Translations under genes and position numbers: made by a program
Shown here: one piece after another, positions 5,195 through 25,600 of the stretch
Numbering within the stretch: position 1 is the first letter of the stretch
Layout: every line of letters starts with the position of its first letter
Assembly: GCA_038063815.1 (NCBI GenBank)
Contig: JBBTUJ010000003.1
Location: 12,965 to 76,964, forward strand
Direction of reading: 5' to 3'
Length of the DNA stretch: 64,000 nt
Origin: Patescibacteria group bacterium
GTDB taxonomy: Bacteria > Patescibacteriota > Minisyncoccia > Phycocordibacterales > EsbW-18
The notes under the pieces: generated by a model
What the model was told of the DNA's origin: nothing
What the model saw: only the letters and a program-made list of their open reading frames with translations
Databases searched by the model: none

Positions 5195-6478
5195 ATGTAT
5201 ATGCCCAAAAAAGTATCCCTCATTCTTACGCTTATCGTCATCCTCGCACTTGTCGGTGGCGTTTGGTTTTGGTTCGCATACATCCACACACCAGCCTCCG
5301 AATCTCCCACAACAGAAGAGTCGCGGGGTGGATTTTTCTCTTTCTTTGGTAACTACTTCGGTGGAAGTGGTGAGCCGGGGACACAGACCCCAACCAACGA
5401 AACCCCGGAAGTGCTTGCTCCCGCGTTCTCATTCCGAGAGCGTCTTACAAAGGAACGAATGCTCTCTCTTTCAGATGTTCCTCTTTCGGGTACAACGTTT
5501 GCACTCATGCGCAAAGGAACGACGACCCCCGCACTGTTCGACGAGCAGGTTCGGTTTGTTGAGAGAGAAACGGGGCACGTTGTTGACCTCTCAATCACAA
5601 CAGGGGACACCGAGCGCATCTCAAACACAACAATCCCCGGTATTCAAGAGACCATCTGGGGCAATGGCGGAAACACAGTTGCCCTTCGTTACCTCGCAGA
5701 AGATAGCGAAACGATAGAGACCTTTGTGGGAACGCTTCCGACAACAACTCCTGTTATGAACACGGACCTTGTTGGAACATTTTTTCCGCAAAACATCACA
5801 TCTCTCGCCATGCGTCCGACGAACGGAGAGGTGTTCTATGTCATCAAAAATCAAGATGGGGCGGCAGGACGTATTACAAATGTCGCAGGCACGAACACCC
5901 GAACTCTCTTTTCTTCTCCTCTTCGTGAGTGGGCCGCGCTCTGGACAAGCCCTTTAATCACCCTCACCACAAAACCGTCTGCACGAGCGACCGGATCTGC
6001 ACACTCTCTTAACCCATCAACGGGAGCGCTTGTACGGCTCACCCCAAACACATCGGGGCTAACTGTTCTTATGAACACGGAGCAAACTCGCGTGCTCTAT
6101 ACCAACACCACCCCTTCTACGGTTTCACTCTTTATACTCAACCTCACCACACAAGAAACATGGACTGTGCCCTTGAGAACTCTTCCAGAAAAGTGTGTGT
6201 GGCGAGATGAAACGAACCTCATATGCGCTGTACCGGACAACGTCCCTGGAAATATGCCCGACATTTGGTACCAAGGACGCGTGTCACTTTCCGATACCTT
6301 ATGGGCAATCGACACCGAAACCAAACTTGTTGATTTCCTCATCTCACCAGAGGAAATTATTGGAGAGGGTGTTGATGCGATTGGGCTTTCACTTTCTTCA
6401 GACGGCACAATTCTCTCGTTCATCAATAAAAAAGATCTGCGTGGTTGGATCGCAGATGTTACGTCAACCAACAACTAG
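5195..6478 (+). CDS. secreted/membrane-anchored Thr-rich protein, unknown function
   Basis: ATG at 5195 lies just after the upstream stop; the ORF-track start at 5087 overlaps the previous gene. TM 'VSLILTLIVILALVGGVWFWF'. C-terminus '...TSTNN' is encoded by the repeat hairpin. Confidence 0.5.
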   Translation: MYMPKKVSLILTLIVILALVGGVWFWFAYIHTPASESPTTEESRGGFFSFFGNYFGGSGEPGTQTPTNETPEVLAPAFSFRERLTKERMLSLSDVPLSGTTFALMRKGTTTPALFDEQVRFVERETGHVVDLSITTGDTERISNTTIPGIQETIWGNGGNTVALRYLAEDSETIETFVGTLPTTTPVMNTDLVGTFFPQNITSLAMRPTNGEVFYVIKNQDGAAGRITNVAGTNTRTLFSSPLREWAALWTSPLITLTTKPSARATGSAHSLNPSTGALVRLTPNTSGLTVLMNTEQTRVLYTNTTPSTVSLFILNLTTQETWTVPLRTLPEKCVWRDETNLICAVPDNVPGNMPDIWYQGRVSLSDTLWAIDTETKLVDFLISPEEIIGEGVDAIGLSLSSDGTILSFINKKDLRGWIADVTSTNN

Positions 6479-6500
6479 TGCTTTGTTTAGTTGTTGGTTG
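6465..6500. terminator. 13-bp perfect hairpin (CAACCAACAACTA / TAGTTGTTGGTTG) between convergent genes; candidate bidirectional terminator
   Basis: the stem arms overlap the stop codons of the 5195-6478 gene (TAG at 6476-78) and of yidC (TAA complement at 6487-89); built from the CAACCAACAAC repeat family. Confidence 0.55.
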
Positions 6501-7233
6501 TTGGTTGTTGGTTTTCGGCCGTTATTTTTTTCCTTGTCCACCATTCTTGCCCGATTGAGAATAGGTTTGATGTCGTCCAATAGAGCGCAACCGATGCGGG
6601 TAGCGCAGAAGCGATAAAGACGATGACAACGGGGAAGATGTATTTCATCTGGAACTGCAAACTCTTACTGAACTCGTTCCCGAATGATGGCTTGGTGTCT
6701 TTCTTTGTCTCAGGAACGCGCATGAGCTTCGCTTGGAAGAATTGTGAGACGCCGGCAAGGATAGCGATAGGAATACTCCTTACTGTCACGTCCACAAGTC
6801 CCAGGAACATCGTATTGATGTGTGACGGGGCATCAACGAATGAGTAGAGGAATGTGGGGTCTATCGCGGGAAAACCGGCCCGCAGAACCATGAAATAGAG
6901 ACCGAAAATGATCGGAATCTGAATGAAAAGAAAGAGGATATTCGAGAACGGATTAACCTTGTTGTTCCGATAGAGCTCCATCATCTTCACTGCCTGCTCT
7001 TGTTTGTCGTTCTTGTACTTCTCTTTAATGGCATCCATCTCCGGTTGGAGTTTTTGCACCATGAGTTGGGTGCGGACCGATTTTTGCGCGATAGGGAAGA
7101 GGATGAGTCGAATCACGCACGTGAAGACAATCACGATTACCCCGAGATCTGCCCAGGGAAGCGCCTGCATCAAAAGAACAATCCCGTTATACAAAGGTGT
7201 GGTAACAAACGTTCCGAATATGCTGTGTGACAT
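6487..7233 (-). CDS. yidC: membrane protein insertase YidC (short form)
   Basis: 248 aa, multi-TM, Oxa1/YidC-like; sits in the conserved rpmH-rnpA-yidC arrangement; C-terminus '...QQPTTNN'. Confidence 0.8.
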   Translation of the reverse strand: MSHSIFGTFVTTPLYNGIVLLMQALPWADLGVIVIVFTCVIRLILFPIAQKSVRTQLMVQKLQPEMDAIKEKYKNDKQEQAVKMMELYRNNKVNPFSNILFLFIQIPIIFGLYFMVLRAGFPAIDPTFLYSFVDAPSHINTMFLGLVDVTVRSIPIAILAGVSQFFQAKLMRVPETKKDTKPSFGNEFSKSLQFQMKYIFPVVIVFIASALPASVALYWTTSNLFSIGQEWWTRKKITAENQQPTTNN

Positions 7234-7254
7234 AGAAAGTAGTATACCTCGGCA

Positions 7255-7626
7255 CTAACTTTTGCGCATTCGGACATCCGATGTCCCGTCTTCGGACATC
7301 GAATATTCGAAAAGAAGATTCTTTATTTCCACCTCAAGTTCTTTGAACGAGAGTTCTGGTGCATTCTTTTTTGCAAACAACACATATCGACCGGGAGAGA
7401 TCGGTGTGTTTTTTTCCGACCGACGGAACACGTCATACACGCGGCGCTTGAGTTTGTGTCGCGCAACCGCTGTCCGTGCGACCTTTTTTGAAACAACAAC
7501 AGAGAAACGTGATGCCACGTCAGCGTGTGACACGGCGCGAAGAGAGAAGTGGGTGGCATGAAAAACCTGTCCGTCGCGTCCCGACGGAAATTCCTGCCGT
7601 GTTATACGACGCCTCTTTGAAAACAT
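7255..7626 (-). CDS. rnpA: ribonuclease P protein component
   Basis: 'SKRRRITRQEF...' RnpA motif; start taken at the internal M 'MFSKRRR'; lies downstream of rpmH. Confidence 0.8.
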   Translation of the reverse strand: MFSKRRRITRQEFPSGRDGQVFHATHFSLRAVSHADVASRFSVVVSKKVARTAVARHKLKRRVYDVFRRSEKNTPISPGRYVLFAKKNAPELSFKELEVEIKNLLFEYSMSEDGTSDVRMRKS

Positions 7627-7717
7627 ATAGAACGTATTTAAAACACGATTTGCTGCGCTGCCCGCTCCGGTCCTCGCCCGCGCCTTGCCTCTCATGTTTT
7701 AAATACGTTCTAGTGGG

Positions 7718-7852
7718 TTAGACAGTGAGTCGTTTTCGTCCTTTACTACGACGACGCGCGATTATGTTCCGTCCCGTCTTCGATTTCATACGGAGACGAA
7801 ACCCGTGTGTTTTTGCCCGCTTTCTCTTTTTTGGTTGATATGTTCTTTTCAT
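7718..7852 (-). CDS. rpmH: 50S ribosomal protein L34
   Basis: hand translation of the minus strand gives [44 protein letters not shown] (44 aa); not in the ORF track because it is <60 aa. Confidence 0.85.
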
Positions 7853-7971
7853 AACTTTAATTGTGTGTTGTTGGTCGTTGGTTGTCGGTTAATTTGTCCC
7901 CACATTATTAACATAGTTATCTCCTTCTCACAAGTTCTCTCGGCACACCACTCATCTATAATGAACACTCT

Positions 7972-9348
7972 ATGACAACAACAACGACCACTCCCACCGA
8001 CACAAAGTCATTGTGGAAACATGTTCTCTCCGGCGTCGAGATTGTTGTGTCGAAACCCGTATTTCGAACATGGTTCAAGGGTACACACATCGTTCGTGTT
8101 GATGATGGGGTTGTCTATATTGGTGTTCCAAACCTTTTTGCAAAGGATTGGATTTCGTCAAAACATCACAAGACGATACTCCGGCTCTTGCGTGAGGTCT
8201 CAGACATCGTCCGTTCAGCAGAATATGTTATCTCAACCAAGGCTCCCGAGGACGCAACACTTCCGACCCTGACGCGCGAAGACGCGCTTCCACAATCGTT
8301 CGGTGAGTTGCCACTCAAAGATCTCTACATCAACAGGGCGGACAACTTGAATCCGCGCTACACGTTCGACTCATTTGTTGTTGGTTCGTTCAACGAACTC
8401 GCACATGCCGCCGCACAGGCAATCCTTGAGCGTCCTGGTATGCGCTATAACCCGCTCTTTGTGTATGGACAAACAGGACACGGAAAAACACACCTTATCC
8501 AGGCAATCGGAAACGAGATAAAAAAGAGATTCCCTGACAAAAAGGTGTTTTATGTTACCTCTGAACGGTTTTCTCAGGAGCTGGTGAATGCGATACAAAC
8601 GAATGCTGTTGGGGCATTCAAGGAAAAGTATCGAAAATTCGATGTTTTGATCATGGACGATGTGCAGTTTCTTTCAAGTAAGGAAAAGACGCAGGAAGAA
8701 CTCTTCCACACATTTAATGATATCTACGAGAAGAACGGTCAGATTATTTTTTCATCTGATCGTCATCCCAACTACATCTCTTCGATTGCAGATCGGTTGA
8801 AATCTCGCTTCAACGCTGGAATGACTGTTGATATCCCGCCCCCTGACGCAGAGTCCCGGATGGCAATCGTCAAATCAAAAGCGTCAGAAAACGGCATCAC
8901 CCTTCCTCAAGAAACACTCATGTTCCTCGCCACATCGATTGAAGGAAACATCCGCGAGCTTGAGGGGGCACTCAATTCACTTCTTGTACAAACACACATG
9001 AAGAAGCGCGATCTCACACTCGCCGAGATTAAAGAGATCATAAAAAACAACGTACGCCCCAAGAAGATGGTTGCGGTCAAAGAGGTGGTTAAGATTGTGT
9101 CTGGATTCTATAACCTCGACGAGGAAAGTATTTATAAGAAAAGCCGAAAAAAGGAGGTGGTTAGGCCTCGTCAAATCATCATGTATCTTCTCCGGGAGGA
9201 TTTTGCGCTTCCGTATCCGTCGATAGGACAGAAGATGGGTGGTAGAGACCACACAACAGTTATTCACTCATATGAGAAGGTTAAGGAAGATATCAAAACA
9301 GACCACCAACTAGAACAAGAGATCGCACAACTGCGTGCGATGCTCTGA
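7972..9348 (+). CDS. dnaA: chromosomal replication initiator protein DnaA
   Basis: AAA+ Walker A 'GQTGHGKTHL', C-terminal DnaA-box-binding domain, classic position. Confidence 0.95.
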   Translation: MTTTTTTPTDTKSLWKHVLSGVEIVVSKPVFRTWFKGTHIVRVDDGVVYIGVPNLFAKDWISSKHHKTILRLLREVSDIVRSAEYVISTKAPEDATLPTLTREDALPQSFGELPLKDLYINRADNLNPRYTFDSFVVGSFNELAHAAAQAILERPGMRYNPLFVYGQTGHGKTHLIQAIGNEIKKRFPDKKVFYVTSERFSQELVNAIQTNAVGAFKEKYRKFDVLIMDDVQFLSSKEKTQEELFHTFNDIYEKNGQIIFSSDRHPNYISSIADRLKSRFNAGMTVDIPPPDAESRMAIVKSKASENGITLPQETLMFLATSIEGNIRELEGALNSLLVQTHMKKRDLTLAEIKEIIKNNVRPKKMVAVKEVVKIVSGFYNLDEESIYKKSRKKEVVRPRQIIMYLLREDFALPYPSIGQKMGGRDHTTVIHSYEKVKEDIKTDHQLEQEIAQLRAML

Positions 9349-9356
9349 TAAGGGTG

Positions 9357-9502
9357 GATTTATCCAGCACTTACATTACTGTTATGTTTTTGTTACCAAA
9401 ACAACCCCAGAAGACAGAGAGTTATCGTTTGGTATTTTGGGGTTGTGTACGTGTTTTATAAAAACACAACATAACAACAGTAATGTAAGTGCTGGATAAA
9501 TC
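9357..9502. repeat. long imperfect palindrome (32-nt arms, 24 bp perfect core) in the dnaA-dnaN spacer; oriC-associated candidate
   Basis: left GATTTATCCAGCACTTACATTACTGTTATGTT pairs with right AACATAACAACAGTAATGTAAGTGCTGGATAAATC, which has a 3-nt bulge; inner palindrome GTGTTTTATAAAAACAC; arm ends carry TTATCCAGC (DnaA-box-like, 2 mismatches). Confidence 0.6.
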
Positions 9503-9754
9503 TGTGGAGAGGTGTGGGTGAAGGGTGGGGTTAAGTTGTTGGTAGTGTGTGAAGAAAATCGGTGTTTTTAAGAAAAAGACAGAATAAGCAAAAACTAACC
9601 GTCAGTTCTTCATACATAAAGTATCAGTAATGCACATGTGCGTATCTAAAAACAAGAGCCCCGCCTTCAGTTTAGATACTTTTTAACATATCCACGCACA
9701 TAATAGTAATAATAATCTTTTATTTATAAAGAATAGAAACAAGGTATCAACACC

Positions 9755-10855
9755 ATGAAAGCAACCCTTCCAACCAGAGATTTTCAAATAGCTGTTTCAA
9801 ACGCGGGACGTGTTACAGGAAAACATCTTTCACTTCCGATACTCCGCTGTCTTCTTGTTGTGACAACAAAAAACGAGATTACGATTCGTGCAACAAATCT
9901 TGATCTGGGAATCGAGATACGGATTCCCGCACGGGTTGAGAAGGAAGGCGTGTTTGCTGTTCCTGCAGACGTACTCGACGCGTTCGTTTCGAACATCTCA
10001 TCAGGAGACGTGCTCACCATATCCCACGAGGGGTCAACACTTCATCTCTCGACCCCAAAAACAAAAGCAAAGATTGGGACGTTCTCTCACGAGGATTTTC
10101 CGTCGCTTCCCGCGGTGCCGGACGAAGAACATTTTACTGTCGGCGCTGGAGAATTTGCGGGGGCACTCCGAAGTGTGTCCTGGGCCGCCTCTGCATCAAG
10201 TATCAAACCAGAGCTCGGGAGCGTGTATCTTTATCCGAACGGTGACGAACTCGTGTTCGTCGCGACCGACTCATTTCGCCTTGCTGAAAAAAAGATTCCC
10301 GCAAAACCCTCAAAGAAATTTGAATCGCTTTTGATTCCACTACGGAACGTGACGGAGATCATCCGCCACCTCGAGGAATCGAAAAGGGATGTTGTTATCC
10401 GTGGAGACGGACACCAGATTGCACTTACACTCGACGGAACGTATATCACGTCGCGCGTCATCGAGGGGGTGTTTCCTGACTATCACCAAATTATTCCAAA
10501 AACACACGATACCGACGCCGTTCTTTTAAAACAAGATCTTGCTGACGCGCTCAAACAACTCCGTGTCTTTTCGGACCAATTCAATAAACTCACCGCATCC
10601 ATTGACCCGAAGAAAAAGACCTTCACGCTCGCAAGCGCAAACCAAACAACAGGAGAGAGTATTGTGACCCTAGACGCGGCGCTTTCGGGGGAACCTTTGG
10701 AACTTCACTTCAACCTTCTTTTTGTGAGCGATTGTCTTCAGTCGGTGAGAACAGACAGCGTCAAAATCGAATTTGGAGGCGGAGGTAAGCCCGCACGGAT
10801 TACTCCGATTGGCGATGCGTCATTTGTATACATCGTCATGCCGATGAATAGGTAG
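9755..10855 (+). CDS. dnaN: DNA polymerase III beta sliding clamp
   Basis: 366 aa, three-domain clamp-like, directly downstream of dnaA. Confidence 0.85.
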   Translation: MKATLPTRDFQIAVSNAGRVTGKHLSLPILRCLLVVTTKNEITIRATNLDLGIEIRIPARVEKEGVFAVPADVLDAFVSNISSGDVLTISHEGSTLHLSTPKTKAKIGTFSHEDFPSLPAVPDEEHFTVGAGEFAGALRSVSWAASASSIKPELGSVYLYPNGDELVFVATDSFRLAEKKIPAKPSKKFESLLIPLRNVTEIIRHLEESKRDVVIRGDGHQIALTLDGTYITSRVIEGVFPDYHQIIPKTHDTDAVLLKQDLADALKQLRVFSDQFNKLTASIDPKKKTFTLASANQTTGESIVTLDAALSGEPLELHFNLLFVSDCLQSVRTDSVKIEFGGGGKPARITPIGDASFVYIVMPMNR

Positions 10856-11132: not shown

Positions 11133-13313
11133 CTAGTTATTATTTAGAGGAATCAATTTTCCTTTTTCTCCGTATCCGTTTGCAACGGCCCACGCGCGTA
11201 CCGATGATTCCCAACGTGTGAATTGCGGGTCATTTCCGGGGTTGTCCGGTTCCGGACCCTGCGGATCGTCTTTTTCTACCCAATATAAGATTGAGTGCAC
11301 GTCTTGTTTTACGTACTCACGTCTTCGAGACGCAGGTGTGTTGTCGTTTGCGGGTTTCCCTGTTTTTGTATCAACGGTGACCATCTCACCACCTTGCCAA
11401 ATCCCACGAAGGACTGGTTTAACGTCTTCTTCGTATGTTGGTGATGCAAAGCCCGTCTCGGGGAATTTTTGAAGCGCAAACTCCATGAACTCGTGCCACA
11501 AAGGAGCGATAATAAACCCAGCAACCTTTTTTTCCATCGGCGTGTTGTCATTGTTTCCCGCCCATGCACCCGCGGAAATCGATGGTGTGTATCCGATAAT
11601 CCACGCATCCCGATAATCGTTTGTTGTTCCTGTTTTTGCAGCGACCTGTTTGCCAGGGAAGTACAAAGATGAGCGTTCACCGAATGCCGGTGTCCGTGCG
11701 GTATTATCAGAAAGAATATCGGACATCTGGAGCGCGATGTTTCTATCAATGACACGGAACGATCGCGCGTTAAACTCTTCAAGCACCCTTCCTGTGCTAT
11801 CTTCAATTTTGAGGATTGGTGTTGTTGGATTACGTGAGCCGTCGTTCGCAAAGACGCTGTATGCGCTCGTGAGCTCCAAGAGGGTCACCTCACCTCCTCC
11901 AAGGACCAAGGTGAGCCCGTACCGTGCCGGGTCTGCAAGAGTTGTGATACCCATATCGCGCGCCGTTTTAAGCGATTCGGTGAGTCCTGCAAGGTACACA
12001 GCTTCGACCGCAGGAACGTTCACGGACTGTGCGAGGGCCTGTCGTATCGTCATTGGACCACGGAACAAGAGATCGTAATTTTTCGGGCTATAACACGGAG
12101 ATATATTCGACATGCTCGATGCCGGACATGCCGTTGAGAATTGTGTTGGTACGTCAAAGAGTACTGTGTCCGGCGTGTACCCCTTTTTAAACGCCGTTGC
12201 GTAGACGAACGGCTTGAACGCAGATCCTGGCTGGCGAAGCGCGAGTGTTATGTTCACGTTGCCGTCGATATCTTTATCAAAGTAGTCGCGCGACCCGACC
12301 ATCGTCAAGATCTGTCCTGTTTTTGGATCAAGTGCAACAAGGCTGGCGTTTTCCGCATTGAATTTTTCTTTGTTTTGAAGTGCCCCCTTCAAAATGATTT
12401 CCTCCGCTTTTTCCTGAAGCTCGTAATCAAGTGTCGTGATGACGTTGAGACCCCGCGAGTCGATGCCGCCCGAGCCGTACTTTTTTTCAAGATAACTTTT
12501 CACATAAAAAACAAAGTGTGGAGCGAGAATACCTTTCTCTGGTTGCGGCTGGAATGTCACCACTTCTTTCTCTGCGGAAGCCCGGTCTTCTTCGGTGATA
12601 AATCCAAGCTCAACCATGCGTCGCAACACGACATTTTTTCTGGCGTCTAACTCTTTGAGATTGTCTCCGTACGGAGAAAAGTATGTTGGTGCTTGAGGAA
12701 GCGCCGCGAGGTACGCGGACTCTGTGAGTGTGAGATCAGATGCTGACTTGTTAAAAAACCGCCGGCTTGCTTCCTCGATGCCATAAACAGACCCACCGTA
12801 TGGCGCCTCATTCAAATAGAGCGAGAGAATCTCTTCTTTTGAGAGTGCTTGTTCGAGTTTGATGGCCAAAACCCACTCCTTGAGTTTTCGGGTAATTGTT
12901 TTCTCTGTCGTCAAAAGAGAGTTCTTGACCACCTGCTGTGTGATTGTTGACCCACCTTGAGAAAAACCAATTGAAGTGATATTCACAAAAACGGCACGGA
13001 TAATCGCAGAGACCTTGATACCGCCATGTTGATAGAACTCAGCGTCTTCGATCGCAACTGTCGCATTCTTTACATGTCGCGAGATGGAGTCAAAAGGAAT
13101 GACGGTTCTGCGCACATTCTCGTGAAGGTCGTAGAGAAGTATCTTTCCTGTTCTGTCGAAGATCTTTGTTGACTGCTCGACTTTCCGCTCGGTAGCAACA
13201 TCAAAATCAGGAAGACGGATTGACGCCGCAAACAGAAGAAGACCACCCCCAACAAGGGCAACGAAGGCCCCTGCGGCAAAAAGAAGCGTCCGTTTCAACT
13301 GTTTTCGTCTCAT
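11133..13313 (-). CDS. class A penicillin-binding protein (transglycosylase + transpeptidase)
   Basis: GT51 motif 'GGSTITQQ', SxxK 'SAFKPFVY', 'SDN', 'KTGTT'; N-terminal TM anchor. Confidence 0.9.
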   Translation of the reverse strand: MRRKQLKRTLLFAAGAFVALVGGGLLLFAASIRLPDFDVATERKVEQSTKIFDRTGKILLYDLHENVRRTVIPFDSISRHVKNATVAIEDAEFYQHGGIKVSAIIRAVFVNITSIGFSQGGSTITQQVVKNSLLTTEKTITRKLKEWVLAIKLEQALSKEEILSLYLNEAPYGGSVYGIEEASRRFFNKSASDLTLTESAYLAALPQAPTYFSPYGDNLKELDARKNVVLRRMVELGFITEEDRASAEKEVVTFQPQPEKGILAPHFVFYVKSYLEKKYGSGGIDSRGLNVITTLDYELQEKAEEIILKGALQNKEKFNAENASLVALDPKTGQILTMVGSRDYFDKDIDGNVNITLALRQPGSAFKPFVYATAFKKGYTPDTVLFDVPTQFSTACPASSMSNISPCYSPKNYDLLFRGPMTIRQALAQSVNVPAVEAVYLAGLTESLKTARDMGITTLADPARYGLTLVLGGGEVTLLELTSAYSVFANDGSRNPTTPILKIEDSTGRVLEEFNARSFRVIDRNIALQMSDILSDNTARTPAFGERSSLYFPGKQVAAKTGTTNDYRDAWIIGYTPSISAGAWAGNNDNTPMEKKVAGFIIAPLWHEFMEFALQKFPETGFASPTYEEDVKPVLRGIWQGGEMVTVDTKTGKPANDNTPASRRREYVKQDVHSILYWVEKDDPQGPEPDNPGNDPQFTRWESSVRAWAVANGYGEKGKLIPLNNN

Positions 13314-17513: not shown

Positions 17514-17552
17514 AAAAAAGAAAGTGCACACAACATTGTGCACTTTCTTTTT
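17514..17552. terminator. palindromic bidirectional terminator
   Basis: AAAAAGAAAGTGCACAacaaTGTGCACTTTCTTTTTTT. Confidence 0.7.
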
Positions 17553-17579
17553 TTGTGGTGTTTCAAAAATGAAAAAAAT

Positions 17580-19259
17580 CTAGACGGAGAGATCGACAAC
17601 ACGTTCGATTTCTTCGAATGTTGTCGTGCCTTCAAGCACGCGGAGGATTGCGTCTTGTGAAAGAGAGAGAAACCCTTGTTCGCGTGCCGCCTTTCTAATT
17701 TCGCGCTCGCTCGGACTCTCCTCAACAATCCTCTCGATGGTCTCATTCATCACAATTGCCTCAAAGAGCCCAATACGGCCCTTATATCCGTCTCCACCGC
17801 ACTCGGCACAGCCCGGACCGGCCTCAAATACCTTCTCCCTTTGAATACCCGCGATCTTTGTGGGATCTCCCACATCACTCAAAATCCTCTCAACAAGTGC
17901 ACGTCGTTCATCTGGAATCGGTATCTCTTTTTTACATGCGGGACAGAGCGTACGAACCAGTCGCTGTGCGAGCGCGACATTTATTGCCGAGCCCAAGATG
18001 CGAGAATTGATACCGATGTCGATAAGGCGCGTGAATGCTCCCGCGGCGGAGTTTGTGTGAAGTGTTGAAAAAACTAAGTGACCGGTGAGCGCGGCATGAA
18101 TGGCAATCTCCGCTGTTTCGTTGTCGCGAATCTCACCAACCATGATGATGTCGGGGTCTTGCCGCACCGCCGCGCGAAGCCCGCTCTCGAACGTATAGTT
18201 TTTCTCTGCATCTACCTGTGTCTGCACGATTCCCGGAAGGTGATACTCAACAGGGTCTTCGATTGTGATGATCTTTACCTCCGGACTGTGCACTCTTTTC
18301 AAGAATGCGTAGAGAGTCGTTGTTTTTCCTGATCCGGTTGGGCCGGTTGTCAAAATCATACCGTTTGGCTTCGTTATTTCGTGCTCGAGGACGGCTCGTA
18401 GATCATCTCGCATACCAAGCTTCTCAATCGAGACGCTGATTGAATCGGGATTGAGGACACGCATGACGACCGACTCGCCGTACTGCCCCGGCAGGATAGA
18501 TGTACGGATCTCGATGTCCGAGGGGTCGATTTTGATGCTGAAACGACCGTCCTGCGCTTCGCTCTGGATATTCAATTTAAGTCCCGAGAGAAGTTTGAGG
18601 CGGGAGAGAAGTAGGCGATATGTTTCGTGATCAAAAAAGGAGACATCGGTCAAAATGCCGTCGAGTCGCATACGCAGTCGCACCTGCTTTTCTTCCGGTT
18701 CGATGTGGATGTCGGAAGAGCGTGTTGCAAGTGCGCTCGCGAGGAGAACCTCGACGATGCGCGATGTGCGAAATGCTTTTTTGAGATGCACCGTTTCTTC
18801 GATGAACCGCCGCACGTCCTCGACGGTATGCACATCTTTTATGAACGTATTGATATCTTCACTTGAGACATCAAGCATCCCTTTCTTGCTCTCTGACGCG
18901 AACTGGATGTCTTTGAAGCGATCCCACGCGAAGGTGAGGCTCTTTTTCGACGCAAGATATGTGTTCACCGAGAAACCTCGCGCTTCAAGATCCATAACAA
19001 CTTCACGTGCCGCTTCTCCTTCGGGAGAGTGCATCGCGACGTCAATCTCTTTATTCAAACGATTGAAAACCGCAACCTCGGCGGTTCGTGCTGTGCTTTC
19101 TGCCAAAAGGATGAGGGCATCGGTATTGATGGGAGTCGTAGTCAAATCGACATACGGGATGCCGTATTTCTGTGAAAGATTTTGGAGAGCGTCCTCCTCC
19201 TCTTTTTCGCGGAGCTGGTCATACTTCCGTGATTGTTTCGATTCGTCAAATTGGATCAT
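17580..19259 (-). CDS. pilB: type IV pilus assembly / type II secretion ATPase (GspE/PilB family)
   Basis: 'ILTTGPTGSGKTTTLYAF', 'GEIRD', C-terminal Cys4 'CPAC...CAECGGDGY'; start taken at the internal 'MIQFDESK'. Confidence 0.85.
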   Translation of the reverse strand: MIQFDESKQSRKYDQLREKEEEDALQNLSQKYGIPYVDLTTTPINTDALILLAESTARTAEVAVFNRLNKEIDVAMHSPEGEAAREVVMDLEARGFSVNTYLASKKSLTFAWDRFKDIQFASESKKGMLDVSSEDINTFIKDVHTVEDVRRFIEETVHLKKAFRTSRIVEVLLASALATRSSDIHIEPEEKQVRLRMRLDGILTDVSFFDHETYRLLLSRLKLLSGLKLNIQSEAQDGRFSIKIDPSDIEIRTSILPGQYGESVVMRVLNPDSISVSIEKLGMRDDLRAVLEHEITKPNGMILTTGPTGSGKTTTLYAFLKRVHSPEVKIITIEDPVEYHLPGIVQTQVDAEKNYTFESGLRAAVRQDPDIIMVGEIRDNETAEIAIHAALTGHLVFSTLHTNSAAGAFTRLIDIGINSRILGSAINVALAQRLVRTLCPACKKEIPIPDERRALVERILSDVGDPTKIAGIQREKVFEAGPGCAECGGDGYKGRIGLFEAIVMNETIERIVEESPSEREIRKAAREQGFLSLSQDAILRVLEGTTTFEEIERVVDLSV

Positions 19260-19787: not shown

Positions 19788-19867
19788 TTGGCCACTATTG
19801 GTCCGACGTGACGGTACGTTAGTTATTGAATAAAGTCAACTCTTTTTCCTAGTGCTACAATTCATTT

Positions 19868-20812
19868 ATGAAGAGGGTTACCATCGCATCTCTTTCCGAG
19901 ATGAAAACATTTGCTGAGAGTGTTTTGAAGAATCTCAAACCGCAAAAAAAGACCGCGACAGTTTTCGGACTCCGTGGTGATTTGGGTGCGGGGAAAACAG
20001 CATTTGTAAAGGCGATTGCCGAAACTCTCGGAGTAAAAGAACACATCACGAGTCCGACGTTCGTGATACAAAAAATCTACAACCTACCTACCCGACACGC
20101 AGGCGGGCAACCAACAACAAACGAAGGGTTCAAAAAACTCGTTCACATTGATGCGTATCGACTTCAATCGGGAGACGAGCTCAAAAAGATTGAGTGGGAG
20201 GAAACTGTTGCTGATCCGACAGGCCTCATCTTTGTTGAGTGGCCAGAGAACGTGAAAGGAATCATGCCGGAGGGCGCATACCACATTGACTTCGAACATG
20301 TTGATGAGCACACACGATCTGCATCGGTTATGAAAACGCCATTTACACTCTGTGTGATCCACAAGCCACCGAACATTCTTTTGGGGATGAAAAAACGCGG
20401 GTTTGGTGCGGGGAAATGGAATGGATTCGGTGGTAAGGTCGGAGAAAATGAAACCTTAGAACAAGCAACGCTTCGGGAAATCAAAGAAGAAGTAGGAATT
20501 GTGCCGCACAAAATAGAAAAAGTTGGAATACTTGAGTTTGCATTTGAAAACGACACGAAAGGATTTGAGATGCATATTTTTTGTGGGAATGAATTTGAGG
20601 GAGAACCAACCGAAACAGAAGAAATGAAACCACAATGGTTTCATGTGGACAACATACCGTTTTCCGAGATGTGGCCAGACGATGAATATTGGATCCCGCT
20701 TTTCTTGTCAGGAAAATTATTCCGGGCAAGGTTTCTTTTTGACAGACCATCTGATACAGAATATTCAGTGAAAATCATTGAGCACACAATCTCTGAGGTA
20801 GAGAAGCTCTAG
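19868..20812 (+). CDS. tsaE: TsaE (t6A37 biosynthesis ATPase YjeE) fused to a C-terminal Nudix hydrolase domain
   Basis: N-terminus 'GDLGAGKTAFVKAIAETLGV...TSPTFVI'; C-terminal Nudix box 'GGKVGENETLEQATLREIKEEVGI'; internal repeat-encoded 'GGQPTTNEG'. Confidence 0.75.
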   Translation: MKRVTIASLSEMKTFAESVLKNLKPQKKTATVFGLRGDLGAGKTAFVKAIAETLGVKEHITSPTFVIQKIYNLPTRHAGGQPTTNEGFKKLVHIDAYRLQSGDELKKIEWEETVADPTGLIFVEWPENVKGIMPEGAYHIDFEHVDEHTRSASVMKTPFTLCVIHKPPNILLGMKKRGFGAGKWNGFGGKVGENETLEQATLREIKEEVGIVPHKIEKVGILEFAFENDTKGFEMHIFCGNEFEGEPTETEEMKPQWFHVDNIPFSEMWPDDEYWIPLFLSGKLFRARFLFDRPSDTEYSVKIIEHTISEVEKL

Positions 20813-20814
20813 GC

Positions 20815-23271
20815 ATGCCGAAAAAACCATCACCAACAAAAACAAAAAAGGGGAAAACGGGCGGAAAGCCGAAGCGGCTCGTGCTTCTTGATGCACACGC
20901 GATTATTCATCGTGCATACCACGCGCTTCCTGACTTTACATCCGCAACAGGCGAGCCGACGGGGGCGCTCTATGGTCTTGCGGCGATGCTCCTGAAGATT
21001 ATCGCGGATTTGAAGCCGGACTACATCGCGGCCGCATACGATCTTCCAAAACCAACACACCGCCACATCGCGTACGAAAAATATAAAGCGACACGCAAAG
21101 AGCTTGAAGAACCTCTTGTTGCTCAGCTTGTGCGAAGCAGGGACGTTTTCAAGGCATTCTCGATTCCAATTTACGATAGGGAAGAATTCGAAGCGGACGA
21201 TATCTTGGGCACGATTGTTGAAATGTTCAAAGACGATTCTTCAGTCGAAATCGTAATCGCGTCGGGCGACATGGATACGCTCCAACTTGTTTCGGGAGCG
21301 CGCGTCAAAGTGTTCACGCTCCGGAAGGGCATACAAGATACGATTCTCTACGACGAAAGCGACGTCGAGAAGCGCTTTGGATTTCCTCCAGTCCTTTTGC
21401 CTGACTACAAAGGTCTCCGCGGAGACCCGTCGGATAATATTCCCGGCATTGCTGGTATCGGAGAAAAAACAGCAACGACACTTATCACGACGTTTGGTGA
21501 CCTGGACGCGCTCTATAAAACACTTGCAAAAGGAGAGGAGAAGTTTTTAGGAGCAGGGATAACAAAACGAATCGTCGGACTTTTGAAAGAAGGAGAAGAA
21601 GAAGCGCGATTTTCGAAACTTCTCGCAACGATTCGGCGGGATGCGCCCATTACGTTCACACTTCCTGACACCGTCTGGCGCGAGCACGTTTCGGTGTCGG
21701 AGATTGTCACTCTTTTCACCGAACTCGGATTCCGCTCCCTCGTTGCCCGGGCAAAGGAAGCATTTCCTGAAATAAACCAACAACCAACAACAAACAACCA
21801 ACAACAAATATTTTACACAGAACCCACAACCTCTTTGTCTCATCAAGAATTAACTGAAACAAAGGTCGCCCTGTGGCTTCTGAACTCCGAGATCACCAAT
21901 CCGACGGAGGAAGATATCAAATATTTCGCACGGACGGACGACATCAAAAAGGCACGCGAACACATTCTTTCTGAGGTACAAAAGCAGGGTCTTACGGACG
22001 TTTTTGAAAAGATCGAAAAACCGCTTACGCCTGTTCTTGAAAAGATGCACGAGCGAGGTGTTCGCATCGATACGTCGTACTTAAGCGACATCGCGGAATC
22101 GTACCACGCGGAGCTCGATGCACTGAAGAGAAAGATATTCGAGCGTGCCGGAATGGAATTTAACTTAAATTCCCCGCGACAACTCGGAGATGTTCTCTTT
22201 ACCACACTAGGACTCACGGGAGGAAAGAAAACATCAACAGGGCAGAGGTCAACGCGCGAGTCAGAACTCGCAAAACTCGCGGACAAGCACCCGATTATTG
22301 GAGAGATTTTGCAACACAGGGAACTCCAGAAACTCCTCTCAACATATATTGATGCATTTCCAAAACTTCTTGGTCCCGATGGGCGTTTGCACACAACATT
22401 TGTACAAACGGGAGCGGCAACGGGACGTATGTCGTCTCAAAATCCGAACTTGCAGAATATTCCGATCAAAACGGAGCGCGGCCGCGCTGTTCGTGGAGCA
22501 TTTGTTGCATGTCCGGGTTTTGTGCTCGCAACATTTGACTACTCGCAGATTGAGCTCAGAATCGCAGCGATTCTTTCGCAAGATGAAAAACTTCTCAAAA
22601 CATTTTCTGAAGGCGGTGATATTCACACGGCTGTTGCGTCAGAGATTTTTAATGTGCCACAAAACGATGTGACGCAGACGATGCGCCGCACCGCGAAAGT
22701 CATTAACTTCGGTATCATCTACGGCATGGGCGCGAACGCGCTCGCAGCAACGGCGGGCATGAGTCGTAAAGATGCGCAAAAATATCTCGCGGAATATGAA
22801 AAGACATTCCCGACCCTCTCGCGTTGGATCGAGACCCTTTTTGGTGAAGTCCGAAAAAAAGGTTACACAGAAACACTTTTTGGGCGTCGGAGGCATCTTC
22901 CCGGTATCCGATCACCTCTTCCGTATATTCAGGCAGAAGCAGAGCGCCAAGCGGTCAATGCGCCCATTCAGGGAACTTCTGCAGACATCATCAAACGCTC
23001 AATGGTTGAGGTTGATGAATATATTGCACGAGAAAAATTAGATGACGACGTTTTTGCGATTCTTCAGATTCACGATGAACTCATGTATGAAATAAGGGAA
23101 GGTGTTGCAGACAAGGTCGTTCCGGAAATAAAAAAGATTATGGAGGCAGGGCTTAGAGACCACCTGCCTGCCGGCAAGGCAGGCGAGACGTATGGGGTTC
23201 CGATTGTTGTTGATGCCTCGGTCGGCACGCGGTGGGGAGAAATGAAAAAAGTAAACAACAAGAAAGAATAA
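20815..23271 (+). CDS. polA: DNA polymerase I (5'-3' exonuclease + polymerase; no 3'-5' exonuclease domain)
   Basis: motifs 'RRRHLPGIRS', 'INFGIIYGMG', 'QIHDELMYE'; 818 aa; the linker contains repeat-encoded 'QQPTTNNQQQ'. Confidence 0.9.
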   Translation: MPKKPSPTKTKKGKTGGKPKRLVLLDAHAIIHRAYHALPDFTSATGEPTGALYGLAAMLLKIIADLKPDYIAAAYDLPKPTHRHIAYEKYKATRKELEEPLVAQLVRSRDVFKAFSIPIYDREEFEADDILGTIVEMFKDDSSVEIVIASGDMDTLQLVSGARVKVFTLRKGIQDTILYDESDVEKRFGFPPVLLPDYKGLRGDPSDNIPGIAGIGEKTATTLITTFGDLDALYKTLAKGEEKFLGAGITKRIVGLLKEGEEEARFSKLLATIRRDAPITFTLPDTVWREHVSVSEIVTLFTELGFRSLVARAKEAFPEINQQPTTNNQQQIFYTEPTTSLSHQELTETKVALWLLNSEITNPTEEDIKYFARTDDIKKAREHILSEVQKQGLTDVFEKIEKPLTPVLEKMHERGVRIDTSYLSDIAESYHAELDALKRKIFERAGMEFNLNSPRQLGDVLFTTLGLTGGKKTSTGQRSTRESELAKLADKHPIIGEILQHRELQKLLSTYIDAFPKLLGPDGRLHTTFVQTGAATGRMSSQNPNLQNIPIKTERGRAVRGAFVACPGFVLATFDYSQIELRIAAILSQDEKLLKTFSEGGDIHTAVASEIFNVPQNDVTQTMRRTAKVINFGIIYGMGANALAATAGMSRKDAQKYLAEYEKTFPTLSRWIETLFGEVRKKGYTETLFGRRRHLPGIRSPLPYIQAEAERQAVNAPIQGTSADIIKRSMVEVDEYIAREKLDDDVFAILQIHDELMYEIREGVADKVVPEIKKIMEAGLRDHLPAGKAGETYGVPIVVDASVGTRWGEMKKVNNKKE

Positions 23272-23275
23272 AAGT

Positions 23276-23983
23276 ATGCTCTACCTTTTTTACGGAACGA
23301 ATACCGACAAGGTACGAGAAATGTCTCGCGATCTCATCAAAAAGTTGGAAGAAAAACGTCCCGATGCGGCAACATTTTCTTTTTCAGATGAAACATTTTC
23401 TTCCGAAGCACTTTCGTACTACAAAGGAGCCGCCGGTCTCTTCGCTCCGCGTCAAATCGTAACGCTTTCTCATATCCTCACACACGAAGATCATGGGCCG
23501 ATTCTTCTCGAGGCGCTCGCCGATCTCGCCGAGTCAGAAAACATATTTATTTTGATAGAAGGAAATCTTCCTGTAAAAATTGTTGCCTCGTGCGAACGTC
23601 ACGCGGAGAAGGTTGCACACTTTCCATCAAAAGAAGCGAAAGGGGAAAAGCCATTTTCAATATTTACCTTGACTGATGCGCTGGGGAAGCGAGACAAGAA
23701 AAACCTCTGGATTCTCTATCAGCGAGCGCTTCGGGAAGATATAACACCCGAAGAGGTACACGCGATTCTTTTTTGGCAAGTGAAAACGCTTCTCATGGTC
23801 TCGGGTGGTGCGACAAAAAACATGAAGCCGCGTGTTCTCAGCAACGCAAGAGCATTTTTGAAAAATTTTTCACGCGAAGAACTTGAGAACCTCTCTCTTT
23901 CATTAGTTGTGCTCTATCACGATGCTCGCCGCGGTGTCGTTGAGTTTGGTATCGGGCTCGAAAAGTTGCTGTTGTCGATATAG
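23276..23983 (+). CDS. holA: DNA polymerase III delta subunit (HolA)-like, short
   Basis: 'MLYLFYGTNTDKVRE' HolA-like N-terminus; downstream of polA. Confidence 0.5.
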   Translation: MLYLFYGTNTDKVREMSRDLIKKLEEKRPDAATFSFSDETFSSEALSYYKGAAGLFAPRQIVTLSHILTHEDHGPILLEALADLAESENIFILIEGNLPVKIVASCERHAEKVAHFPSKEAKGEKPFSIFTLTDALGKRDKKNLWILYQRALREDITPEEVHAILFWQVKTLLMVSGGATKNMKPRVLSNARAFLKNFSREELENLSLSLVVLYHDARRGVVEFGIGLEKLLLSI

Positions 23984-24003
23984 TGTTGTAAAGTCTAGCC
24001 ATT

Positions 24004-24077
24004 CCGCCCGTAGCTCAGCCTGGTAGAGCACCTCCCTTTTAAGGAGTGGGTCGTTGGTTCGAATCCAACCGGGCGGA
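24004..24077 (+). tRNA. tRNA-Lys (anticodon UUU)
   Basis: cloverleaf folded by hand: acceptor CCGCCCG/CGGGCGG, D-arm GCTCAGCCTGGTAGAGC, anticodon loop CUUUUAA, T-loop TTCGAAT. Confidence 0.8.
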
Positions 24078-24082
24078 CTTTT

Positions 24083-24553
24083 ATGTCGAAAAAGATATTT
24101 GTTATCCTCGACAATATTCGAAGTGTTGAAAACACAGGATCGACTTTCCGCACGTCTGATGGGGCGGGTGTCTCAAAAATATATCTTTGCGGTACGACAC
24201 CGACACCAATCGATCGTTTTGGTCGCGCACGAAAGGATTTTGCGAAAGTATCTCTCGGAGCAGAAAAAACAGTTCCGTGGGAACATGCAAAAAACACGAA
24301 AGATATTATTGCACGCCTCAAAGAAGAGAATGTTCAAGTTGTTGCTGTTGAGCAAGACAAGAAAGCGATTGATTATAAAAAATTAAAGGCGGGCGGCGCT
24401 ATCGCATTCGTTTTTGGAAACGAAGTCAGCGGTGTTTCAAAAGATATTCTTTCCCTGTGCGATGAAATCGTTGAGATTCCAATGAAGGGAGCAAAAGAGT
24501 CCTTGAACGTCTCGGTCGCCGCAGGAATCATTCTTTTTTCTGCTTCCGCATAG
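24083..24553 (+). CDS. SPOUT (SpoU/TrmH/TrmL-type) RNA 2'-O-methyltransferase
   Basis: 'FGNEVSGVS', 'ESLNVSVAAGIILF' motifs; 156 aa. Confidence 0.8.
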   Translation: MSKKIFVILDNIRSVENTGSTFRTSDGAGVSKIYLCGTTPTPIDRFGRARKDFAKVSLGAEKTVPWEHAKNTKDIIARLKEENVQVVAVEQDKKAIDYKKLKAGGAIAFVFGNEVSGVSKDILSLCDEIVEIPMKGAKESLNVSVAAGIILFSASA

Positions 24554-24576
24554 TTCCCTGCCTGCGCTTGTCCGCG

Positions 24577-25551
24577 TTAATACTGCCAGACGTCAACTAA
24601 CTTGCCCTGTGCGTCGAAGAGGCCAATCGTCTCGCGGTCGTCTCGCCACAAGTCGTTCCGATTTGCATTCAAAAAGATGCGCCACTCGTCTTTGAGGAAG
24701 TCGGAATCGTTCTTGTGGAGTTTTACGCACCCTTCGTAGTTGCTGTACTCGCGGATGAATGCGCGACACTCTTTTACCACATCTGACGGTGCGGACCCAC
24801 GCTCGCATTGTCCGACATCTTCGATTGCGTCCATACATTCGTCGTACTCATCTTCATCGTCAAAATCATCGAACGCAAGATCAAATTCGGAAAGATTTTC
24901 TTCTTCAAGAAGGGGACACTCGGAATAGAGTGACGGTATGAATCTGTTTTCATTCCCAAAATAGCCGATACATTTATTCACGAGGAACGAAGTGCGGATA
25001 CCCGCTGCTCCTCCTGTCGAAACAACTGCTTCATCCCCCGGCGCGAGATACATCGTGCCTGCGGAGAACCACGGTCGGTTGCCCATAAGCACACGCACAC
25101 CCTTGCCGATCTTCGCTCCCCGGTCGGTCACGAGGCTTTTGAGGACCCAGCCCGTGATAGGAATAGGCGTTTCATTGTCAGACGATGCGGAAAGGCGCAC
25201 GTATTCTTCGTTTCGGACATCTGTCCACGTATTCCCTGACTGAATCTCGACCTTTCCCGCGTAGGGAGAAAGGTTTTGGGAAAGTTTCGCCTCATCGATA
25301 TCACCTTCGAGTTCCTCGATCTTGGATTCGATCCGGTAGAGTTCACCTTCGCGATATTCGGTGTCGTCCACGACTCCGTCGTTGTCTGCGTCATATGAAC
25401 GAAGGTAAGTGTCTCTCTCGGTAAGGTCATATGAAGGTTCGTTGTTCCACGTGCTTCCGAATTCTCCGAATGAAAGACCAGCGTCTCTCATGACTGCCAC
25501 GATGAAGATGCCGGCGATAACGATAAAACCAATCTTAAAAAGTGAAGACAT
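24577..25551 (-). CDS. secreted protein with lamin-tail-domain (LTD)-like region and Cys/acidic C-terminus
   Basis: 'EYVRLSASSDNETPIPITGWVLKSLVTDRGAKIGKGVRVLMG' LTD-like; start at internal 'MSSLFKIGFIVIAG' (TM/signal). Confidence 0.45.
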   Translation of the reverse strand: MSSLFKIGFIVIAGIFIVAVMRDAGLSFGEFGSTWNNEPSYDLTERDTYLRSYDADNDGVVDDTEYREGELYRIESKIEELEGDIDEAKLSQNLSPYAGKVEIQSGNTWTDVRNEEYVRLSASSDNETPIPITGWVLKSLVTDRGAKIGKGVRVLMGNRPWFSAGTMYLAPGDEAVVSTGGAAGIRTSFLVNKCIGYFGNENRFIPSLYSECPLLEEENLSEFDLAFDDFDDEDEYDECMDAIEDVGQCERGSAPSDVVKECRAFIREYSNYEGCVKLHKNDSDFLKDEWRIFLNANRNDLWRDDRETIGLFDAQGKLVDVWQY

Positions 25552-25554
25552 ATG

Positions 25555-25600
25555 AATACAGTAACAAACAACCAACAACCTACAACAAGCAAGAGAGGCC
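25555..25600. repeat. CAACCAACAAC-family repeat (gtaacaaacaaccaacaacctacaacaag) in the 5' region of the LTD gene
   Basis: the same motif family as at 1-19, 451-487, 6465-6500, 7861-7890, 20105-20120, 21778-21810, 34052-34141. Confidence 0.6.

Follow-up and report, generated by a model that had tools for sequence, protein, structure and literature searches.

The 64-kb stretch analysed here (the window; contig JBBTUJ010000003.1, forward-strand positions 12,965 to 76,964) comes from a metagenome-assembled genome (MAG) of a groundwater Parcubacteria (Patescibacteria) bacterium with a very small genome, for which contig names indicate the Hainich site, and it carries a dispersed family of short tandem arrays, most of them at gene boundaries and some of them in frame within proteins. 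A type IV secretion system (T4SS)-like cluster that encodes PrgI-like and TraC-like proteins, a VirB4/TraG-type ATPase, membrane proteins and a pilin (494-6478 and upstream) adjoins the yidC-rnpA-rpmH-dnaA group, and is syntenic in the relatives L021 and L022. The CAAC-type arrays, together with the gene that two of them enclose, are as follows (window coordinates, strand).

1..19, +: 3' end of the left CAAC arm, (CGACCAA)n, which continues about 15 nt upstream of the window in L105, a Logan contig reaching past the window start
Stop TAG at 17-19, +: C-terminal tail of the PrgI-like protein, ...STNDQRPTTDN-stop, encoded by the left arm (L105)
27..428, -: PF05635/TIGR02436 four-helix-bundle gene, 133 residues, between the two arms (Pfam, NCBIfam)
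449..481, +: right GTTG arm, (GGTTGTN)4.6, ahead of TACAAT (481-486) and the TraC-like ATG at 494
6465..6478, +: CAAC arm that forms the last codons (TSTNN) and the TAG stop of a 427-residue gene, 5195..6478
6487..6513, -: (CAACCAA)3.4, encoding the YidC tail QQPTTNN-stop; hairpin partner of the preceding arm
7867..7890, -: solo array (units AACCGAC, AACCAAC, GACCAAC, then AAC) between rpmH and dnaA
20093..20125, +: TsaE beta-hairpin insertion RHAGGQPTTNE, with the array core CAACCAACAACAAAC at 20108-20122
21775..21810, +: (AACCAAC)5 in frame in the PolA interdomain linker (NQQPTTNNQQQI)
25563..25586, -: GTTG-type array (units GTTGTAG, GTTGTTG, GTTGTTT, then GT) upstream of a lamin-tail-domain gene
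34052..34073, +: CAAC arm of a gene-less pair, 7 nt past the pilM stop
34105..34134, +: GTTG arm of the gene-less pair, running into TACAAT at 34135-34140

Arrays were detected with Tandem Repeats Finder together with a purpose-made scan. Every repeat site reported in a first-pass annotation of this DNA is present (1-19, 449-481, 6465-6475 with 6487-6513, 7867-7890, 20108-20122, 21775-21810, 25563-25586, and 34052-34073 with 34105-34134). The 11-nt unit proposed there has to be replaced by one of 7 nt, (CAACNNN)n or in complement (GGTTGTN)n, with two to five units per array and head-to-tail runs of 3.4-4.6 units at 449, 6490, 7867, 21775, 25563 and 34105. Successive matches to CAACCAACAAC are spaced 7 nt apart, and period-7 arrays number 10 against 0.8 expected, as compared with 0-5 against about 1 for periods of 4-6 and 8-12 nt. 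With one mismatch or fewer, CAACCAACAAC is matched 23 times in the window against 1.75 expected from dinucleotide-preserving shuffles (shuffle maximum, 5); CAACNNNCAACNNNCAAC occurs 19 times (0.52 expected), as does CAACNNNCAAC (2.8 expected). A uniformly distributed low-complexity bias was among the outcomes that, according to the first-pass annotation, would undo its reading; we rejected such a bias, and codon bias too, since the excess belongs to period 7 and to certain units and the dinucleotide-preserving shuffles fall far short of the observed count.

Comparison of the window with 12-13 related loci and two closer relatives indicates how far the family extends. The window PolA is 66% identical to Candidatus Campbellbacteria proteins; L019 is a relative with 84% PolA identity, L021 an 87%-identical relative, L022 the Campbellbacteria genome CP064977, L020 the Campbellbacteria locus used in the TsaE comparison, and L014 Parcubacteria GW2011_GWA2_42_14. 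An excess of 5-mer recurrence at lags of 7 and 14 nt is found in the window and in L014, L015, L007, L019 and L020, all of them Parcubacteria, and is absent from two Bacillota control loci fetched by the same query. Array units differ from genome to genome, and CAACNNNCAAC is at background in the closest relatives (1 against 0.5 expected in L019, 1 against 2.2 in L021). We therefore discarded the notion of the CAAC unit as a clade-wide conserved motif; it recurs only sporadically, in L014.

Across the window and the relatives' loci, non-ORF (open reading frame) DNA accounts for only 8.5% of the sequence, yet it contains the greater part of each of at least 21 of the 53 arrays; in the window, only two of about 14 lie deep within an ORF. 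Such a distribution, like the specificity for a period of seven nucleotides, is what would be seen if the arrays were plain slippage microsatellites that arise in place, serve no function, bear no relation to the four-helix-bundle gene and are kept where they are neutral. Heptanucleotides are the dominant class of long simple sequence repeats (SSRs) in many bacteria, and have been ascribed to polymerase slippage (Mrazek 2007, as cited in PMC4679880 and PMC4692102). We consider slippage by itself an unlikely but serious contender, and the organization of the arms, the genes beside them and their coding copies each bear on it below.

The dispersal of the motif also invites comparison with DNA uptake sequences (DUS) or uptake signal sequences (USS), and with Chi or FtsK-orienting polar sequence (KOPS)-like recombination and orientation signals. 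DUS and USS, too, are found as inverted terminator pairs and in frame within proteins; the window encodes type IV pilus/competence-like genes, and on either side of dnaA the strand that reads CAAC is in most cases the leading one. The arrays, however, are degenerate tandems, units unrelated to one another are present side by side, and the unit is not shared by the closest relatives; the 64 kb contain just eight copies of exact 11-mers, each of them in the first 35 kb, so that the last 29 kb are empty of them. This density falls far below that of a DUS or USS, which is one invariant 9-12-mer present about once per kb, and we judge a signal of either sort to be extremely unlikely.

Inspection of array orientation revealed that copies of the CAAC family occur mostly as inverted pairs, in the order 5'-CAAC arm, GTTG arm-3', which can fold into long stems at gene junctions. 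The hairpin that the first-pass annotation had placed across the stops of two convergent genes is borne out: 6465-6478 pairs with 6487-6500 through 13 Watson-Crick pairs and one G-U, with a folding free energy (dG) of -24.4 kcal/mol (z -4.2) for 6465-6500, and the stem covers both stop codons (TAG at 6476-6478; TAA as the complement of 6487-6489). A second pair, at 34051-34135 between pilM and pilN, folds at -43.7 kcal/mol (z -5.7). The arms at 1-19 and 449-481, which flank the four-helix-bundle gene in what we term a cassette, span about 31 and 33 nt and stand some 430 nt apart; with a mini-loop used for the calculation, they pair at -48.6 kcal/mol on the operon-sense RNA and at -25.1 kcal/mol on the other strand. 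The arrays upstream of rpmH, in TsaE, in PolA and at the lamin-tail-domain promoter are solo, with no partner arm.

The arms of different pairs also resemble one another more closely than a common unit would demand. Window positions 1-16 are identical to 34052-34067 at 16 of 16 positions, TTGTAGGTTGTNGGTNGTNNGTTAC has three mismatch-free occurrences against 0.00 expected, and the cassette arms as a whole are near-identical to those at pilM/pilN, irregular variant units included. Since irregular unit order is shared in this way, the arms appear to have been copied between sites rather than grown independently. Slippage leaves unexplained both this order, common to two or three loci, and the organization of arrays into inverted pairs. 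As dispersed short inverted repeats at gene 3' ends or between cistrons, the pairs recall repetitive extragenic palindromes (REP), bacterial interspersed mosaic elements (BIME) and hairpins resembling miniature inverted-repeat transposable elements (MITE); these, like DUS/USS pairs, act as terminators or mRNA stabilizers. The hallmarks of REP elements and their paired form, REPIN, are a REP-associated tyrosine transposase (RAYT) and a conserved palindrome with a GTAG/CGTC head. The arms described here, in contrast, have an internal period of 7 nt and vary greatly from one close relative to the next; no transposase-like (RAYT-type) gene was noticed beside the window arrays, although no genome-wide search was made.

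The gene between the cassette arms (27..428) encodes a protein that matches Pfam PF05635 (E 5.9e-24) and TIGR02436, the '23S rRNA IVS protein' (intervening sequence; E 6.8e-24). The cassette sits between the PrgI-like and TraC-like genes of the T4SS-like operon, and its gene is read from the other strand. L021 and L022 lack the PF05635 gene together with both arms at their orthologous PrgI/TraC junction; this joint absence indicates that the cassette is one insertion unit. L022 has two PF05635 genes of its own, and both lie between inverted heptamer arms, each with a distinct unit (1557-2075; 17517-17984). The arms of PF05635 genes adjoin the start and stop codons of the gene.

These features place the window cassette close to the IVS found in the 23S rRNA genes of Coxiella and Leptospira, in which a PF05635 ORF likewise occupies the loop of an element of about 430 nt closed by a long terminal stem (PMC4990558). 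The Coxiella element is 428 nt long with a 28-bp terminal stem that is cut by RNase III, and the 23S IVS is regarded as a selfish element (PMC4990558). The window cassette has the ORF and the terminal stem of an IVS-type element but not the rRNA location: whereas an IVS is inserted in helix 45 (or 25) of 23S rRNA, the cassette lies between protein genes. It differs as well in having arms made of heptamer arrays, further copies of which occur without an enclosed gene. A scan of the window at Rfam gathering thresholds returned seven tRNAs only, with no rRNA and no known RNA family on the arrays.

The association between PF05635 genes and heptamer arrays extends well beyond this operon. A metagenome scan with an alignment of three PF05635 proteins yielded 80 loci (L025-L104), 76 of which retained both flanks. 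Complementary flanks (z>=4) were present at 41 of the 76 (44 in a second run) as against 4 of 34 control neighbouring genes (Fisher p 2e-5); two of these four neighbours are PF05635 genes themselves and one is a GxxExxY/PF13366 gene. Period-7 arrays were found in 57 of 151 PF05635 flanks versus 18 of 586 control windows, an approximately 12-fold enrichment, and no other period exceeded 9 of 151 flanks. Slippage offers no explanation for arrays being enriched beside one family of genes.

A tblastn search of 72,556 plasmids found relatives of the PF05635 protein almost only in cyanobacteria (Nostoc, Calothrix, Trichormus and others). Heptamer arrays flank the gene in all eight plasmid regions inspected (L108-L115; seven cyanobacterial and one from Azospirillum), two Nostoc PCC 7120 regions having a clear array downstream of the gene only. 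The units are TCAGGAG in N. punctiforme, AGGGTGT/CTACACC in Calothrix, AAAGCTA (more than 15 copies) in Pseudanabaena and GGACAGA in Azospirillum; a Picosynechococcus plasmid is also among the array-flanked cases. Two of the plasmid-borne copies lie inside CRISPR-cas operons (cas6/cas4; cmr2/cmr3). One metagenome locus, L065, carries at 188-562 a GxxExxY/PD-(D/E)XK gene of 124 residues (PF13366, TIGR04256) with complementary flanks (z 12.6), possibly a second type of small-gene cassette. The literature searched, which did not extend to subscription sources, held no report of a link between PF05635 and heptamer repeats.

Similarity between PF05635 proteins tracks similarity between the units of their arms (r -0.54, permutation p 0.0005), and continues to do so after GC content is removed. 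The correlation is consistent with joint descent of gene and arms and cannot by itself prove recognition of one by the other. It also counts in favour of a binding-site explanation, in which the arrays would be bound, on RNA or DNA, by the PF05635 protein or by a single-strand binder of the Csp/S1 type, with the dispersed arrays as targets in trans. Distant arrays do share a unit with cassette arms, as the CAAC family does in the window and as ATATCAA does in Campbellbacteria, where it is common to the arms of the second L022 PF05635 gene (17543-17908) and the TsaE insert; the arms abut the start and stop codons; and Csp, S1 and CsrA have been proposed to bind the TAACTGA repeats of other bacteria (PMC4679880). 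Against this, co-descent accounts for the correlation equally well, arrays in essential ORFs are unlikely regulatory sites, and many arrays have no PF05635 gene nearby; we think binding improbable. A broader conjecture, which we entertain only tentatively, is that arrays of this class and PF05635 proteins are two parts of one system, in which the gene would move as a compact cassette ending in inverted heptamer arrays, each paralogue would have its cognate unit, and solo or gene-less arrays with that unit, those within ORFs included, would be derivatives or trans targets of the cassette. If an Avd-like protein does recognize the repeats, the four to five units per arm might correspond to the pentameric bundle seen in bAvd. 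Strand asymmetry was considered as a sign of an RNA-level role and set aside: strong in the window cassette, it vanishes across the 41 metagenome cassettes.

Where arrays enter ORFs, comparison with orthologues supports the view, put forward in the first-pass annotation, that a nucleotide repeat has entered coding sequence. The tract in TsaE is a 10-residue insertion in the hairpin that precedes HIDAYR, and is absent from L019. In YidC, the Pfam domain (PF02096) ends at residue 235 of 248, 13 residues short of the C-terminus; the tail is an extension that L021 and L022 do not have. At the PolA linker, relatives carry other sequence of similar length. The in-frame readings given earlier for these three proteins (GGQPTTNEG in TsaE, NQQPTTNNQQQ in PolA, QQPTTNN-stop in YidC) are correct. 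The count of three was too low, since two further overlaps exist, at the end of the 427-residue protein (TSTNN-stop) and of the PrgI-like protein (...RPTTDN-stop), the L021 orthologue of which ends in ...SETKKE-stop and has no array. The copy at 25563-25586 is not in YidC and lies upstream of the lamin-tail-domain gene (24577..25551, minus strand). Orthologues that keep the same residues without the nucleotide repeat, which would have marked ordinary conserved sequence, were not seen: QPTTN is absent from the orthologues.

In place of the CAAC unit, relatives have other heptamers at the same or similarly tolerant positions. The TsaE hairpin contains (CTAAAAA)5 in L007, (CTAAAAG)4.7 in L014, (CAAATYC) in L015 and (ATATCAA)3 in the Campbellbacteria locus L020; the PolA linker of L019 has (CCTACAC)4.7 where the window has its own array; PolA of L009 and L015 carries arrays near residue 136; and UvrB of L014 holds two. 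One of the two (17994-18027, plus strand, in frame) is (TAGGGTT)n, the plant-type telomere unit, a match that is almost certainly coincidence. The resulting peptides include PTPYTLH, YQISN and KSYKLKA. Different units at shared permissive sites are what slippage would be expected to leave. The first-pass annotation's alternative of a recombination or insertion hotspot sequence finds no support; what recurs is a set of permissive protein sites and not one motif. Arrays within ORFs persist only at such places, namely C-terminal tails, the TsaE loop, the PolA linker and a signal peptide, and mostly in the orientation that is free of stops. Of six other units tested, four are free of stops in a single orientation, which is the one that their coding arrays show; where a perfect repeat would bring in a stop, a variant unit takes its place, as in L007, where TAT or CAT stands for TAA.

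The peptide itself is best viewed as a by-product. Because seven is not a multiple of three, every frame of an array yields one and the same peptide, and (CAACCAA)n gives the cyclic heptapeptide QPTTNNQ in all three; the confinement to a single reading frame claimed at first therefore falls away. That QPTTN(N) might be a selected tag, as had also been suggested, has in its favour the presence of the same peptide in three to five proteins. It is, however, the sole possible translation of the repeat in any frame; orthologues lack it, the same DNA stands in non-coding positions, and relatives have other units and other peptides at the same sites. We give a tag virtually no credence.

Several observations on the proteins concerned are recorded here in their own right. 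The window TsaE (19868-20812) is fused to a C-terminal NUDIX domain, for a total of 314 residues, while the two closest relatives, L019 and L020, have stand-alone forms of 145-150 residues. In PolA (20815-23271) a short linker connects the 5'-3' exonuclease domain to the polymerase domain, Pfam gives no match to a 3'-5' exonuclease, and the PolA proteins of the more distant relatives L011, L012 and L014 keep about 80 extra residues exactly where the window has its array. The N-terminus of DnaA, MTTTTTTPT, was considered as a further array and dismissed as ordinary sequence; relatives have MTTATATPS.

Heptamers other than the CAAC unit are also found in the window, where TTGTTCA-type arrays occur three times and a TTCATGN array once.

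4375..4400, +: perfect (TTGTTCA)3.7 in frame, in the signal peptide of the T4SS pilin (LLVHCSLFIVS)
29834..29863, -: (TTCATGN)4 upstream of the TACAAT of gene 29360..29815
32909..32936, +: TTGTTCN array between a GC-rich, terminator-like hairpin (32865-32905) and TATCAT
62427..62453, no strand assigned: degenerate TTGTTCN array

The pilin signal peptide provides a point in favour of slippage: the corresponding segment of L021 is just as long but shows only weak periodicity; the window sequence looks to have been homogenized in place to a perfect repeat with its length unchanged.

Examination of the sequence downstream of the arrays indicates that five of them stand directly upstream of a TA(C/T)nnT hexamer, followed after 6-8 nt by a start codon.

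TraC-like gene, +: TACAAT 481-486, ATG 494; array 449-481 fills the -35/spacer zone
Lamin-tail-domain gene 24577..25551, -: TACTGT 25558-25563, 6 nt, ATG 25551
Gene 29360..29815, -: TACAAT (complement of 29822-29827), 6 nt, ATG 29815
pilM, +: TATCAT 32938-32943, 7 nt, ATG 32951
pilN, +: TACAAT 34135-34140, 6 nt, GTG 34147

The same -10/start geometry is found without an array at dnaA, tsaE, ruvB and the gene at 30813. More generally, a TA(C/T)AAT-like hexamer followed by 6-9 nt and a start codon recurs at the first genes of operons (481-496, 7957-7974, 17182 on the minus strand, 19856-19870, 29827 on the minus strand, 30801-30815, 32938-32953 and 34135-34149), which suggests widespread use of leaderless or near-leaderless mRNAs by this organism. 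L021 and L022, neither of which has the array, keep the -10 box, 7-8 nt and ATG of the TraC-like gene; as the geometry persists in these array-less relatives, we conclude that the arrays occupy the -35/spacer zone of real promoters. The GTTG arm may itself provide the -35 of the downstream promoter (TTGTAG, 16 bp, TACAAT). This promoter reading rests on the recurrent -10 box, 6-9 nt and start codon and not on a consensus scan.

A terminator role is suggested in a similar manner by the yidC/convergent-gene junction. In L021 the orthologous junction has a hairpin built from another heptamer, (AACGCAT)2/(ATGCGTT)2, and in L022 it has a classical GC-rich bidirectional terminator; by this correspondence, the window hairpin lies at a terminator site. 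On RNA, the stems would act as terminators or as processing or stabilizing stem-loops. The solo array at 7867-7890 precedes the start codon of rpmH (7719..7853, minus strand) by 14 nt, and a partly decayed orthologous copy is present in L021.

Arrays stand beside or within a number of pilus, T4SS and surface genes (the TraC-like gene, the pilin signal peptide, pilM, pilN and the lamin-tail-domain gene), which raises the question of contingency loci, in which gain or loss of 7-nt units would switch such genes as it does at Haemophilus influenzae hmw and Escherichia coli neuO. Heptanucleotide phase variation is documented at the hmw1A/hmw2A promoters (PMC8262952) and for neuO of E. coli K1 (PMC13001214), and those 7-nt tandems likewise accompany surface-related genes. 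Contingency repeats are long, perfect and variable; the arrays here have two to five units, are mostly imperfect and are also found in the essential PolA, TsaE and YidC and in L014 UvrB, and in an array that contains the -35 a change of unit number would leave the -35/-10 spacing unaltered. Assemblies of the same population (L001, L023, L024 and L105-L107, drawn from GCA_964355065, ERR3858120, ERR3858121 and ERZ1292633, that is, three sequencing samples and one MAG) show no copy-number polymorphism: wherever they align, they match the window at 100% identity, with 33 terminal bases of L107 left unaligned. Phase variation is, on this evidence, very unlikely. Between species, both unit and length differ at orthologous array sites. 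Short-read contigs L023 and L024 end near window position 7847, and L107 at 17, in each case within about 20 nt of an array, which suggests that the arrays fragment assemblies.

Taken as a class, the window family belongs with heptanucleotide repeats of the short tandemly repeated repetitive (STRR) kind, and is a further case of that known class; its added value is the association with PF05635. Cyanobacterial STRR sequences were reportedly described by Mazel and colleagues in 1990. Like STRR sequences and long SSRs, the arrays are few-copy 7-nt tandems, dispersed, with units specific to the genome and positions near gene ends, and with period 7 over-represented. They depart from that class in their candidate phyla radiation (CPR) host, in being mostly paired as hairpin arms and in standing, in several cases, in frame within essential conserved proteins; no report of such repeats in CPR bacteria was found in the literature searched.

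Two described families come closest. TAACTGA repeats of marine Beggiatoaceae, cyanobacteria and Bacteroidetes lie upstream of start codons and at ORF peripheries, as two to six direct copies a few nucleotides before starts where Shine-Dalgarno sequences are rare; like the window arrays, some overlap stops or the protein periphery, with an orientation in ORFs that is set by stop codons (PMC4679880). Unlike the window, that study (MacGregor 2015, PMC4679880) has almost only direct sets (one indirect) of a single unit, and does not mention four-helix-bundle genes. The arms of PF05635 genes in the metagenome loci L038 and L039 are TAACTGA-like. The GGGNATC repeats of Xanthomonas and Nostoc are likewise scattered as heptamer arrays that favour about four units, no more than 50 bp from the start or stop of an ORF (Rehm et al. 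2015, PMC4692102). They form G-quadruplexes, which most units described here (TTGTTCA, CTAAAAG, ATATCAA) cannot do; arms of the GGTTGTGGGTT type might form a weak two-tetrad quadruplex.

The reading that we think somewhat more probable than its competitors taken together is that the heptamer arrays are a lineage-specific family of the STRR kind that serve as, or derive from, the hairpin arms of an IVS-type cassette, with in-frame copies at permissive sites. The inverted pair that encloses the PF05635 gene makes the cassette itself, inserted into an operon, and the other pairs are copies of the same arms without a gene. On RNA, stems between cistrons would terminate transcription or support processing or stability, and the GTTG arm would supply the -35/spacer region of the leaderless-type promoter downstream (TACAAT, 6-8 nt, start). 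Arms would be copied between sites and evolve by slipped-strand turnover, leading to concerted evolution of units. An array that lands in an ORF is kept only where the protein permits. The descriptive parts of this reading are well supported; the RNA and promoter functions we infer from position and sequence. The 7-nt periodicity, the inverted-pair hairpins, the position relative to the -10 box and the enclosed four-helix-bundle gene had all been missed in the first-pass annotation.

A number of observations weigh against this interpretation. The 64-kb window contains a single PF05635 gene, and in L014 no such gene is visible over 22 kb that carry 11 arrays; these arrays, together with the solo ones, indicate that arrays are not always tied to a cassette. 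The flanking arrays are direct instead of inverted in 16 of the 76 metagenome loci, and in Pseudanabaena as well. Across the 41 metagenome cassettes, the strand on which the arms pair shows no preference relative to the gene (20 versus 20, Wilcoxon p 0.95). The candidate -35 TTGTAG fits the consensus at just three of six positions, and a sigma-70 consensus scan calls none of the array-linked promoters, with overall counts at chance. The action of the stems on RNA is inference only, and the identity of all same-population assemblies gives no sign of ongoing slippage.

The neighbourhood offers two further observations. A block of about 45 nt, GAGAACTTGTGAGAAGGAGATAACTATGTTAATAATGTGGGGACAA (rpmH strand; 7895-7945, between rpmH and dnaA), is kept in three genomes amid intergenic DNA that has otherwise diverged; the cumulative GC skew turns near this position, and the block is possibly a dnaA promoter/DnaA-box or origin element. 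L019 has a LAGLIDADG homing-endonuclease-like gene (8293-9126) between holA-like and SpoU methylase genes, which is absent from the window.

For annotation, the arrays explain odd low-complexity inserts (QPTTNN, PTPYTLH, KSYKLKA) in conserved CPR proteins, as well as false N-terminal ORF extensions and breaks in short-read assemblies, three contigs ending at arrays. For the organism, they indicate that a highly reduced genome tolerates repeats that overprint terminators, promoter upstream regions, signal peptides and protein loops. The association of heptamers with PF05635 is statistically strong, drawing on the 76 metagenome loci that could be used and on eight plasmids of bacteria in culture, and it brings two items without a known function, STRR sequences (since 1990) and PF05635 (since the 1990s), into one testable hypothesis. 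If it is true that the protein recognizes the repeats, the pair would constitute a new kind of small selfish or regulatory element, common to CPR bacteria, cyanobacteria and others.

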